Assembly: GCA_964016885.1 (NCBI GenBank)
Contig: OZ024745.1
Span: 96,782,001-96,846,000 of the forward strand
DNA: 64,000 nucleotides
Source: Eledone cirrhosa
Taxonomy: Eukaryota
Direction: 5' to 3'
Part shown: positions 1 through 44,491 of the stretch, piece by piece
Numbering within the stretch: the first letter of the stretch is position 1
Layout of the letters: every line of letters starts with the position of its first letter
Program-made: the position numbers and the translations under genes
Notes under the pieces: generated by a model
Databases searched by the model: none
What the model saw: only the letters and a program-made list of their open reading frames with translations
What the model was told of the DNA's origin: nothing

Positions 1-397
1 TTCGTTTTGGCCAGTTTTTAGATTTGCTTAGTGGTGCAGGTGCCTATGGATTAGATCTCTCTTCCTCGCTGATTCCAAGGTGAAACATAGCTTTATTGCC
101 ATTAAGGAATTAAAGTACTGTTTGAATTTTTTGCTAAACTATCTATACTGTTTCATTTTCAGTTGATATGGTCTTACATTTTTTGCAAATTGTCTTCTGT
201 ATTGTTTGATGTATTTCTATATGTCATACTCTCTTGAATGAATATATATATATATACGTTAGAAAGTGGGGTTATTTTATCAAAATGAAAAATAACCGAG
301 GTGTCCTACACGAGTGAAAGTATAAAGAAAAAGAGATGAAATCGAAAATGCAACTGGAGTCTTATTTAAAAAAATATATATATATATTTATTTGGTT

Positions 398-435
398 CCT
401 TTACCGGTTTCGCTGTTCTTCTGCTTTTCAAAAGG
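398..435 (-). ncRNA. Hammerhead ribozyme (inverted copy of 506-543)
   Basis: Reverse complement of 506-543 with one mismatch in stem II. Confidence 0.7.
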
Positions 436-505
436 TGAGTTGATCAAAAGGTGAGTAGATCTGTGGTTTTTCTCACAAAAACCACAGACCCTCCATCTCA
501 ACTCA

Positions 506-543
506 CCTTTTGAAAAGCAGAAGAACTGCGAAACCGGTAAAGG
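506..543 (+). ncRNA. Minimal type I hammerhead ribozyme, U3-A8 core variant
   Basis: cctt-TTGAAAA-gcag aagaa ctgc-GAAA-ccgg-TA-aagg: stem I cctt/aagg, 4-bp stem II, palindromic stem III ACCGGT. Confidence 0.75.
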
Positions 544-729
544 AACCAAATAAATATATATATATTTTTTAAAAATAAGACTCCAGTTGCATTTTCGATT
601 TCATCGCTTTTTCTTTATATATATATATATATATATATATATATATATATATATATATATATATATATATATATATATATATATATAATCAATAACAAAG
701 AACGCCTATAGCATATGCATATCTTTACT

Positions 730-775
730 TGCTAACATTGTTTCATCCGCACTATAAGTGGGACTCATCAGAGCA
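730..775 (-). ncRNA. Type I hammerhead ribozyme at PLE 3' end
   Basis: Reverse complement of 7771-7816. Confidence 0.8.
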
Positions 776-2846
776 TAAAGGTTAATTACATACCACACAA
801 GCAATAACAAATCCAAGACATTGAAGAAATAAAGAATGAAAAATAATAAAAGATAAAAGATATTGAGGAAGTAAAAATAAAAATAAAGATAAAAATAAAA
901 ATAAAAATAAAAATAAAAATAAAAATAAAAATAAAAATAAACATTGAAAAATAAACAATGGAAAATAATTGAAAAATAATTGAAAAATAAGGGGTGCTAT
1001 CAGTCACAGTTGGGCGGGGTGCTATCAACATATAGTTACATACAAGCATACACATGGATAAGAGAACAGACAAGAATAGATAAGATAGATAGGATTAGGT
1101 AAGAGTAGATAAAAAATAGGTGAAAAATAGGTAAAAAATAGACTTATAATATATATAAGAAAATATTTAAAAAAAACATACATATAGAATATAAAATATA
1201 CAGATAATAGTGATACAGGGTAAGGAATGAAATAAAATAGAATAAAATAATATAAAATTAAAATTAAAATTATATAAAATAGAATATAATATAATATAAT
1301 AATAAAATAAGATAAAATAAAATAAAATAAAATAAACTAAAATAAAATAAAATAAACTAAAATAAAATAATATAATATAAGATATAATTAAATAAATAAA
1401 ATTAAATAAATAAAATTAAATAAAATGAAATGAAATGAAATCAAATAAAATAAAATAAAGTAAATTGAGATAAGATATATATTTTTTTAGAATATATTTC
1501 TTGAATATATCAGGGGCCCACGAAGGCACTAAGTGTCACAGTTATCAGTATCACTTGACCATTGCAATGCAATGGAGACGTCCCAGGTTGGGCAGTCTCA
1601 AAAGTTCACTCGAAAGTCACGGGTGTGCATTCACACAGTTGAGCGGTGGGGTAATCACAAACCGGTTCACACCCGGGCAGGAGTCCAATGGTCAACAGAG
1701 GTACATCGAAGGAAGGTAGGAGAATTCACGTGCAGCAGCAAGAGGCAGACAGGTGGGCCGAAAGCAAGCAGGTGCAGGCGGGCTAGCCGAAAGCAAGCAG
1801 ACACAGTTGGGTCAGGCGGGTTAATATGCATACTCAACAGCGCATACAAAAGATATATAAAAAATAGCTTCAAGAGCCAATATCATGAAGTCCCCGCATT
1901 GGGACATCTCAAGATTATACACACCACTATGTTCAGCACGTATATGCACATATACACACCACATGCATATGCAGAGACGGTATACATATATATATATTTT
2001 TATATACAGACATATACAACCACCTACACCCATACACATATAAATGTATACACAGACACACACGCACACACACACAGCGTAGGACACCCGGGTCAAAGCT
2101 GATATTAAACACAGAAATACCACATTAGGCAAGACCCACCACCACGGATAATACATTCAAAATAAATACATACGATGAGATGCAGTAAAATAAATCAAAT
2201 TGAAATCCTACGGAGATAATCATGTCCGCACGTGCCATTGCCCGATTCAAGTGTACACAGACCGTTAGTAACTACGGAGGGCTATCGGGGCCAAAACGTT
2301 ACTTTCGGGATAATAACAACGACCGTCAATATATGGAAGGCCAATCGTGCTAGAAAGACTACAACCCCGGGCAAGAGCTCCCAGAAGTCGGCCTGTAGAT
2401 CTTAAACCACAGAATAGGAGGGCAACACGTACATGTGCCACGTATCTACTGCTTACGGCGAGATGGCACAGGTCCGCCCACAGTTACAGGCTAAATTTCT
2501 ATTTGTGCAGCCTATATCACAGTACACGCTCTACATAGATACATTACATCATAACTCATGCGCACACAGAGGTACAGATCCGCAAGATACACGTCGGGAT
2601 AGACCCACCAATGCACCAATGGTGGGTAGGCGAACGTGGATGGGCTACATCCGCTGTGCCAAACAGGGGTGCTTATTAACATACACACCCACTCACCTGT
2701 ACACCGCAATATCCAGATCAATATTCTCCCGCAGGCATACGTATACACTCACTGACTCATATACATAGAAGACAAACAATAGGAGACAGTTACACACAAT
2801 AAGAGACAGTTACACAAGATAGCCCAACTGGAGAATTAAGGAAGTG

Positions 2847-42200: not shown

Positions 42201-42348
42201 TATATATATATTTCATTGCCAAAATGAAAGTTTTCTGATATTACAGATGATAAAGTAAGTCCGTCAAAACAGTGAGTTTGTCTTGCCAGACGTACACAAC
42301 TTTTATGTAGACTGCCTAATATAAACTTTGGCAATATCTTCAGATATC
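42201..42348 (-). ncRNA. Hammerhead with long stem II insertion
   Basis: atat-CTGAAGA-t attgccaaag..(~100 nt)..ttttggcaat-GAAA-tata-TA, running into (TA)n. Confidence 0.6.
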
Positions 42349-42977
42349 ATTATTGATCTAAGCGTGTAATTTCCTGGCACAGATTTAGATGTTTTCTTTC
42401 GAACACATAATACGAAGGACATCAATCGAACATTATATTAGTTTATCTATCAATCATGAATCCATCAATCCATCCCATCCATTCTCACACCATCATCTCT
42501 CTAACAAGCTTACTAACTGCTTCTCTGTCTTTAACTCGATTTTTCAAACTCATATATATATATATATATATATATTTATGGTTATATATATATATATATA
42601 TATATATATATATATATATATATATATATATATATATATATATATATGTAGTAATAAAAATAAATGTGAAGTCTAAAATCGTAAGTTGGCTCGATAAGGA
42701 TAACATATATATAAATATAGTTTCAGAAGATACCGTTAAGGGTGAAAGTTTAAGCAAAGAATCGTTGTTTTACATATATATAGGTATGTATGTATATTGG
42801 TTGGCTCCATTCAACTATATATATCTATATATATATATATATATATATATATATATATATATATAAGAATTAAAATACTAGAGTGTGTTGGAGTTAAACA
42901 CCCTCTTCGTATTATAGAAATGACAGTAAAGGTATAGCTCAATGTAATTAAACAGAGCCGAATGTATAGCTTTACTT

Positions 42978-43015
42978 GCCCTGATGAGTCCTTAACAGGA
43001 CGAAACATTGTTGGC
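42978..43015 (+). ncRNA. Minimal type I hammerhead ribozyme
   Basis: gcc-CTGATGA-gtcc ttaaca ggac-GAAA-c att g-TT-ggc, followed by aataaa. Confidence 0.85.
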
Positions 43016-43387
43016 TAATAAAGACTTTTTATGTATTGAAGGCTTCTTTGGTTTATTTTCATAAATATATATATATATATATATATATATATATATATAT
43101 ATATATATATATATATATATATGTGTGTGTGTGTGTGTATATATATATATATATATATATATATATATATATATATAATCTCATTTGCATATGAAGCTCT
43201 ATAAGTTGGCTCAACTTTTAGAACAGAATTAGAATTTAGCTCCGAACATGGCTGTATATGGATATGTATTGCAATTTCCTATTCTAAAGAAATATGGTAT
43301 GTTAAGATTATTGACCTCATTTACACAGACGAGAAAACTATATATTCTCGCCTGTTTTCAAAGTCCACCAGTTGCAAGAGAGGGAGG

Positions 43388-43433
43388 AATCATCCTGATG
43401 AGAACCAGTTCAGTTTGAAATGCATCGACGATT
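43388..43433 (+). ncRNA. Minimal type I hammerhead ribozyme
   Basis: aatcatc-CTGATGA-gaac cagttca gttt-GAAA-tgca-TC-gacgatt; palindromic stem III ATGCAT. Confidence 0.82.
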
Positions 43434-44220
43434 ATTCACCTGACTTCTGCTGGACACCGCCATGTGGCGATAGCTGCCGATGTCTTTGCATAACTATGGC
43501 TTTCTAGATATTTATTTATAAACATACCGCATTTCTTTAGAAATACGAAATTCCAATACATATCTGTATCCAGCTCTGCTCGAAGCTAAATTTTAATTCT
43601 ATTATATATATATATATATGTATATATATATATATATATATATATATATATATATATATATATATATATATATATATATATATATACATATATATATATA
43701 TATATATATATATATATATACATATATATATATATATATATATATATATATATATATATATATATATATATATATATATATATATATATATATATATATA
43801 TATATATATATATATATATACATATATATATATATATATATATACATATATATATATATATATATATATATATATATATGTATATATATATATATATATA
43901 TATATATATAAATATATATATGTATATATATATATATATATATATATATATATATACATATATATATATATATATATATATATATATATATGTATATATA
44001 TATATATATATATATATATATATATATATATATGTATATATATACGGTATATTGCCAAATAGACTATACTATAATTTTAATTCTATTATATATATATATA
44101 CATACACACACACACACACACACACATATATATATATATATATATATATATATATATATATATATATATATATATATATATATATATATATATATATATA
44201 TATATATACATATATATATT

Positions 44221-44491
44221 TAAGAGTTAAACAAGATTCAATGAATACATCAAAGAATGAGTTTTACAATAGATTGGAAGAACTCTACAAGAAAATATTT
44301 TCCAGAGTTATTAAAATTAATTCAAAATATTAACAAAATAGATATTCTTGTGATCAATTATATTTTATTATACATATTTCAGAGGTACTGAATTAAGTTC
44401 AACAGTACATCCTCATCAGAGAAAATAAAATATGTATAATAAAATATAATTGATCACAAGAATATCTATTTTGTTAATATTTTGAATTAAT
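44221..44491. mobile_element. Short fold-back HHR element (arms 44316-44379 / 44428-44491, tail 44221-44315)
   Basis: 64-bp inverted arms. Minus strand 44368-44425 reads CTGATGA-gga t gtactg..cagtac c tct-GAAA-tatg-TA. Confidence 0.8.

Follow-up and report, generated by a model that had tools for sequence, protein, structure and literature searches.

A stretch of 64,000 nucleotides (nt) from Eledone cirrhosa (assembly GCA_964016885.1, contig OZ024745.1, positions 96,782,001 to 96,846,000 of the forward strand), hereafter the window, contains nine fold-back insertions, named F1 to F9 in their order along it, that we attribute to the activity of Penelope-like elements (PLEs). We consider it probable that such insertions, which lie in (TA)n, each arise from two cDNAs that are primed by both strands of one cut target and joined at their truncated ends. 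The counts that point this way concern a short tail, which nearly every fold-back carries on one arm and lacks on the other. The window is part of a chromosome-sized contig in a 3.0-Gb genome, and is rich in (TA)n tracts and retrotransposon fragments.

An initial annotation, made from the sequence alone, had listed nine ribozyme-bearing fold-backs with head-to-head arms, outward 3' ends and a one-sided tail. Self-BLAST within the window detected an inverted pair at 9/9 of these places. With sense polarity taken from open reading frames (ORFs), hammerhead ribozyme (HHR) motifs and family copies, the arms were also oriented outward in 9/9, in agreement with that description. In each fold-back, one arm stops directly at (TA)n and the other is longer by 24-98 nt, close to the ~25-100 nt first proposed. 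The element at 13910 (F4) had been singled out as tailless and is not: its left arm bears the family tail, interrupted after ~29 nt by a neighbouring element, and other copies possess a family tail.

The same arrangement was quantified genome-wide. Queries were arm-only for eight families and the whole element, tail included, for F5. For each family, the best 40 of 104-1303 candidates were scored and 30 loci kept, which makes the result a sample of best-matching copies; these loci were supplemented by 40 long stretches and by 600 kb chosen blind (six 100-kb blocks). Among 151 outward-facing pairs, 143 had one tail, five had two (one of them, L276, being two separate insertions), two had none and one was unclear. 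Excluding the 21 F5 pairs, which came from the tail-containing query, one tail was found in 122/130, against the ~50% expected if each end were chosen independently (binomial p ~1e-28). Strict de-duplication, merging even distinct young copies, left 105/112 one-tailed. Inward-facing neighbours numbered only three, each split by a TA run. Tail lengths span 24-98 nt across the nine families and reach ~168 nt in other tail clusters.

The blind blocks, tallied in bulk and not resolved individually, held 39 TA-anchored fold-backs of many families, a density of ~1 per 15 kb. A one-sided extension of 15-130 nt was present in 22, a longer one or no detectable TA in 11, and no extension in six. Their arms carried an outward HHR in seven cases and an inward one in one; in five the only HHR was in the spacer, and 26 were without any. 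No partner is in view for up to 177 other ends, of which some duplicate pairs already counted or are truncated at the edge of a locus, and on this basis fold-backs make up roughly a third to half of insertions.

A tail on one side only, for which the initial annotation gave no explanation, requires that two distinct start sites be used in coupled fashion. Two starts are seen in vitro with the purified Poseidon protein PAc from Anolis, which cuts both strands and extends them from two internal sites, one on either side of the tail, without any need for HHR cleavage (PMC11167929). The tail itself equals the start of the next tandem unit: in F7, 34807-34862 matches 35710-35765, so that the 5' start of the right arm repeats part of the tail, and tandems are also seen in L298 and L278. 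Both start sites are therefore internal on a more-than-unit RNA. The initial annotation had proposed that both target strands prime and that the two cDNAs join centrally, which is the arrangement that best fits the one-tail counts, the variable centres described below and in vitro work (Frangieh 2024). Its placement of priming near the RNA 3' end, however, is not supported.

Under this reading, a read-through RNA would be copied from two places, with one cDNA starting at the pseudo-long terminal repeat (pLTR) end and its counterpart at the tail end. The tail RNA would be bound by the protein, which is probably dimeric, in Hydra-type families through a bulged RCUC/GAGY stem; one active site would start ~8 nt from the stem on its 5' side and the second ~35-125 nt from it on its 3' side. 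The two cDNAs would stop independently and, being of the same sense, could anneal only at self-complementary words, which would yield palindromic or symmetric junctions. The short non-autonomous HHR units F3, F6 and F8 would use the PLE machinery in trans.

The ends of the insertions are informative about the target. Across the nine families, (TA)n abuts 184/192 tailless and 125/140 tailed ends, bearing out the annotated tendency of arms to end in (TA)n, and (CT)n or (AG)n neighbours occur at 8/140 tailed and 2/192 tailless ends. Tailless ends overlap TA alternation in the template by at least 3 nt in 32/49 cases, compared with a 22% background, and the tail ends of F2, F3 and F7 do so by 3-4 nt; overall, overlap with TA-type sequence at both ends is 3-5 nt. 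Inspection of empty sites, as had been suggested, gave a partial answer: 143 insertions yielded five empty-site proxies, two of them usable (L308 and L265), in which the TA tract pre-existed but from which no target-site duplication could be measured. We also considered telomerase-like slippage by the reverse transcriptase (RT) as a source of the TA flanks. This is unsupported, as neither usable proxy, representing two of 143 insertions, was clearly expanded.

While outer ends are fixed at two sites per family, the simple junctions are distinct in 128/128 cases. They overlap by at least 2 nt in 37, are blunt or overlap by 1 nt in 36 and contain 1-3 extra bases in 11, the rest having longer or unresolved gaps; several fall on self-complementary words. 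These features bear on whether the fold-backs could be miniature inverted-repeat transposable elements (MITEs), other fold-back DNA transposons, or chimeras formed during sequencing or assembly, all of which we find scarcely credible. Many copies are short TA-flanked palindromes, and the junctions in the window are unbridged in public runs (X1, X4, X7 and X8 at 4200-5700; X1, X2, X4 and X9 at 23557-23858). Fixed outer ends, which might have indicated terminal inverted repeats of a DNA transposon, do exist, but they are asymmetric and enclose a different centre in every copy, with no symmetric terminal repeats or common interior, and the arms extend into ORFs with RT and endonuclease (EN) motifs. 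A MITE or fold-back DNA transposon is thereby refuted, and the initial view of these palindromes as PLE retro-products is upheld. In old copies, the two arms are 5-9% divergent. Chimeras would not be expected to follow a one-tail, TA-bounded rule. Sequence in the public runs is a few percent different from that of the window, and rare forms are lost from their contigs; at the family level, opposite-strand joints are present in X2 contigs (two ending in a tail) and in X9 reads (a single start place only).

The published explanation of inverted PLE copies is antisense self-priming, in which an antisense transcript folds and is copied into a head-to-head palindrome whose ends are resolved by the endonuclease, leaving one tail (Arkhipova et al. 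2013, PMC3846280). This accounts for palindromic junctions, the tail was likewise attributed to EN-mediated resolution by Craig 2021, and both the 45/128 junctions that are nearly symmetric and the alleles common to both arms agree with it. We nevertheless judge it unlikely. If a hairpin is cut with fixed polarity, the tail must end up on the arm that carries the loop, but in the 61 clear cases the tail sits on the longer arm in 29 and on the shorter in 32 (36 and 44 in the full set, with 48 equal or unclear); in L286, for instance, arms measure 488 and 2834 nt, and the tailless arm is the longer. In addition, at least seven tailless arms lie beside an inverted fragment cut within the tail (L233, L033, L268, L191, L153, L155 and one in the C20 block), as read individually among 27 matches, many of them full pairs. 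Because those arms contain no tail sequence, they cannot have templated the fragments, and self-priming would demand additional steps. Tail ends also coincide with RT start sites seen in vitro (PMC11167929).

A related possibility is that a single target-primed cDNA folds back and that the second arm is made by DNA-dependent synthesis. The overlaps of at least 2 nt at 37/128 junctions and the alleles shared by the arms would be in keeping with this, but a copy cannot gain a tail absent from its template, and in 32/61 it is the tailless arm that is longer and carries the loop. Such a fold-back covers at most the half of cases with the tail on the long arm and is contradicted in general by the tailless-long class, which makes it very improbable. 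A simple cDNA hairpin cannot give rise to the tail-only inverted fragments next to tailless arms, which two target-primed cDNAs can, and the occurrence of the tail on either arm also speaks against it.

Priming by two cDNAs could also take place on two RNAs in a dimeric particle, or both cDNAs could begin at the tail end with one tail trimmed by the endonuclease later. A dimer has been predicted for PAc, the D. virilis EN is stated to require the tail for recognition (both PMC11167929), and the five two-tailed pairs would fit. However, two RNAs should sometimes give discordant arms, and none was found in eight informative young insertions; against trimming, the tailless end coincides with an in vitro start site of PAc (PMC11167929). 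Overall, we regard this variant as quite improbable. Subfamily alleles are common to both arms in the young families (4/4 in F2 and 3/3 in F5), from which it follows that in these families both arms are derived from one source copy.

All loci up to L310 were scanned de novo, together with the blocks and the window, which yielded 260 one-sided extensions in 49 clusters. These were compared with a descriptor in which RCUC pairs with GAGY as a lower stem of 4 bp, followed by a 1x3 loop or a 2-nt bulge and then by an upper stem. The stem was predicted in 19/49 tail clusters, against 0.2 expected from shuffles. Its outer pair covaries: once the register is fixed, 11 clusters have A-T, eight have G-C and none is mixed; unanchored, the numbers are 10, eight and one mixed (Fisher p 1.2e-4). 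One cluster has GTTC/GAAC instead. The stem starts a median of 8 nt (range 6-17) beyond the tailless end, and tail length tracks the stem span (rho 0.73, partly by construction). F2, F5 and F9 fit the descriptor. In supplementary file S7 of PMC8557442, the motif is visible by eye in Hydra-2_Amil (coral), in Hydra-1_Ajap and Hydra-2_Ajap (sea cucumber) and, as GCCC/GGGC, in Hydra-1_Crog (sea louse), that is, in 4/6 published Hydra consensus sequences; Hydra-1_Amil has a partial motif and none was seen in Hydra-1_Obim. The bulged RCUC/GAGY stem is predicted to be a conserved RNA hairpin, and no description of it was found in the open-access literature or in the parts of PMC8557442 covered. A very abundant short family absent from the initial list (8679-8799, 10273-10389, 34686-34788, 47244-47379 and 47895-48035) appears to be the largest tail cluster, with 25 distinct fold-backs and an 80-nt tail that includes the stem.

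A more specific proposal, which we see as evenly poised between right and wrong, is that a PLE particle clamps the tail stem and primes both target strands on one RNA from the sites flanking it. If true, this clamp rule would by itself account for how PLEs come to have a tail, head-to-head inversions and palindromic junctions, and the stem would be a cis signal of Hydra-clade elements in several animal phyla and of their non-autonomous riders.

Several observations weigh against two-ended, coupled priming or its clamp form. On PAc in vitro, start sites are alike on both strands, with no sign of coupling in the parts of PMC11167929 covered; the case for coupling comes from insertion counts, and the biochemistry from Poseidon PAc. 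The near-symmetric junctions are also expected from self-priming. The side on which the tail falls varies by family (long versus short arm: 2 vs 9 in F9, 7 vs 2 in F6). Minor alleles are found in one arm only 79 times and in both 42 times overall, with the single-arm excess in older families, where it may reflect later mutation. The tail clusters are related and not phylogenetically independent, so that the covariation count exceeds the number of independent events. Finally, F1, F3, F4 and F8 have no stem, and F6 and F7 have the lower stem but fail the strict descriptor, which means that the stem is not the sole determinant.

Turning to the identity of the elements, F2 and F7 are, judging by their motifs, endonuclease-containing (EN+) PLEs. 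Each has a single ORF in which YRDD and GIY-YIG-type motifs are recognised by eye, of 712 aa in F7 and 674 aa in a fuller F2 copy (L298). At an E threshold of 0.01, Pfam gave no match for the F7 ORF or the F2 ORF parts in the window. Also by eye, the ORFs have DKT, a CxCX5C linker, CxxC and CxH, and lack CCHH; RWK is seen in F7 only, the F2 ORFs read beginning downstream of its position. This motif set fits the description of the Hydra clade in PMC8557442, to which F2 and F7 are provisionally assigned. A metagenome scan returned no relative. Partial tandems, an HHR located in the pLTR, 5' truncation and an inverted 5'-truncated copy, all known features of EN+ PLEs, are present. F3, F6 and F8 are short non-coding tandem units (~429, ~520 and ~320 nt) with an HHR, and F4, judged by eye from L096, corresponds to the 3' terminus of a canonical PLE with a C-terminal EN. 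F1, F5 and F9 are the ends of longer elements, F1 specifically a 3' end, and the loci examined stop short of ORFs; the sense arm of F1 reaches 679 nt in L075.

The architecture is already known, and the elements described here are new members of known PLE clades. Partial tandems, inverted 5'-truncated copies, a one-ended tail and (TA)n bias have been reported for EN+ PLEs (PMC8557442, PMC3846280, PMC2377424), and the initial annotation had correctly named inverted terminal copies and tails as features of PLEs. Published tails measure 30-40 nt, shorter than many here; in contrast to those reports, a near-strict rule of one tail per insertion, independent of arm length, is quantified here, and many copies are short enough to resemble MITEs. 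F2 and F7 share with Hydra-1_Obim and Penelope-13_HM (PMC8557442) the motifs listed above and the missing CCHH, as well as insertion into (TA)n and an HHR with a CTGA[TCA]GA core, and Penelope-13_HM is recorded with an inverted 5'-truncated copy. Their units are longer, with tandem periods of 4720 nt (F2) and 3384 nt (F7), compared with generally <3 kb in the Hydra clade. In F2, moreover, the endonuclease linker is preceded by an insertion of ~70 residues, in frame and rich in Asn, Ser and Gly (window 3560-3900, minus strand, and the L298 ORF), which F7 is without.

The likeness to PAc lies in the two internal starts that bracket the tail and in the extension of both strands. As far as the covered parts of PMC11167929 go, inverted copies are not connected with these findings there, and the start site is described as the same on either strand; PAc also starts without target homology, whereas the ends here overlap TA alternation by 3-5 nt. 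F3, F6 and F8 resemble metazoan non-LTR (long terminal repeat) retrozymes and minimal-HHR tandem repeats (PMC4209133) in being non-coding tandems of 320-520 nt with one small HHR each. They differ in following the tail and inversion rule of PLEs. Inversions are also produced by L1 retrotransposons through twin priming, in which two target ends prime on one RNA and the pieces meet at microhomology. There, each piece copies a different part of the RNA; here, the same 3' region is present in both arms. L1-type twin priming is ruled out, given that the inverted piece repeats the 3' piece.

The origin of the tandem and inverted structures of PLEs was named as an open question by Craig 2021 (PMC8557442), and the 2024 biochemistry (PMC11167929), in the parts covered, ends before integration. 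No paper stating a two-strand, two-site model for these inversions was found in the open-access literature. The counts presented here favour two-ended, coupled priming, and what they add is the one-tail rule, the comparison of tail position with arm length, and a candidate cis stem. That candidate RNA stem provides a mutable element through which the question of PLE inversions becomes testable. For annotation, TA-anchored fold-backs would be mistaken for MITEs or microRNA hairpins, and several score weakly with Rfam microRNA models.

Ribozymes accompany many, but not all, of the fold-backs. A custom descriptor finder located intact-core HHRs in 5/9 window copies (683, 8025, 13910, 21673 and 34803), and 11 intact-core matches in the whole window compared with 0, 0 and 1 in three block shuffles. 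In F9 (44221) the core is intact by eye and stem I was not found. The core is changed at two positions in the copy at 257 and at three in that at 39495, and no HHR was found in the window copy of F6 (23554); a longer copy of its family, L252, carries a sense-oriented HHR by eye. In all, the HHR is intact in five or six of the nine window copies, degenerate in two and absent in one, which corrects the annotation of all nine as ribozyme fold-backs. All HHR motifs detected in the nine are directed toward the outer ends. Rfam recovered 0/9 of these ribozymes. Cleavage sites lie ~30-210 nt inside the arms and mark neither end of the element, and we infer that the ribozyme is a passenger in the insertion step. 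Coordinates of all nine fold-backs are collected in Table 1.

Table 1. Arms, tails and ribozymes of the nine fold-backs, in window coordinates.
Feature	Position	Strand	Details
F1 fold-back	257..619		tail 257-322 (minus, 66 nt); arms ~323-470 (minus), 479-617 (plus)
F1 degenerate HHR	506-543	+	
F2 left arm, tailless	688..4789	-	5'-truncated PLE, Hydra-type by motif; RT + GIY-YIG part 2847-4789; HHR 730-775
F2 junction repeat	4790..4911	-	122 nt, exact copy of 4022-4143, at inversion junction
F2 right arm, shorter, tailed	4916..7860	+	HHR 7771-7816
F2 tail	7861..7948	+	88 nt; equals next-unit start (L298); predicted GCTC/GAGC stem with bulge ~7868-7889
F3 fold-back	8025..8665		429-nt non-autonomous tandem HHR unit; arms to 8606; tail 8607-8665 (+)
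F3 HHR	8357-8399	+	
F4 fold-back	13884..14238		partial tail 13884-13912 (minus); left arm 13913-14114; right arm 14112-14238
F4 HHR	14030-14068	-	
F5 fold-back	21673..21977		arms 21673-21783 (minus), 21776-21879 (plus); tail 21880-21977
F5 predicted tail stem	~21884-21923		ACTC/GAGT
F5 HHR	21724-21778	-	
F6 fold-back	23553..23858		unit ~520 nt; left arm 23553-23610; right arm 23610-23788; tail 23789-23858
F7 left arm and tail	34807..35712	-	arm 34885-35712; tail 34807-34884; HHR 34907-34986
F7 right arm, tailless, near full length	35710..39325	+	712-aa open ORF 35883-38021, Hydra-type by motif; HHR 39224-39303
F8 fold-back	39490..39911		320-nt tandem unit; tail 39888-39911 (+, 24 nt)
F8 degenerate HHR	39708-39752	+	
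F9 fold-back	44221..44489		tail 44221-44317 (minus, 97 nt, predicted stem ACTC/GAGT); arms 44318-44415, 44409-44489
F9 HHR core	44413-44419	-	

The repeat at the F2 junction suggests, from its sequence, a template jump ahead of joining. Arm lengths cluster in a family-specific manner (138-157 nt in F1, 187-200 in F4, 96-117 and 200-216 in F5, 150-172 in F9), and these clusters may be RT stops or palindromic joining sites.

Related sequences occur elsewhere in the window and in the sampled loci. Hammerhead motifs beyond the nine lie at 42965-43035 (+), a weak HH9 match and the sole HHR match from Rfam, and at 8921-8971 (+), 30021-30071 (-) and 40005-40070 (-). A fold-back of ~9.5 kb, from L328:5261 to L329:4743, is built from a 468-nt HHR tandem unit, and its two sides carry three and 15 ribozymes, respectively. 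Non-inverted tandem copies of F3 and F8 are found at 33836-34624 (-) and 60958-61384 (+), and a partial-tandem family of ~745 nt with a CTGATGA box and a (TA)n end at 20833-21584 and 44553-46192. Other PLE fragments, all on the minus strand, are located at 41389-42057, 59102-60717 and 62047-63198, two being Hydra-type and one canonical with a Pfam GIY-YIG match. A long interspersed nuclear element (LINE) at 30863-33743 (+), with Pfam matches to an AP-endonuclease and an RT, is unrelated to the fold-backs.

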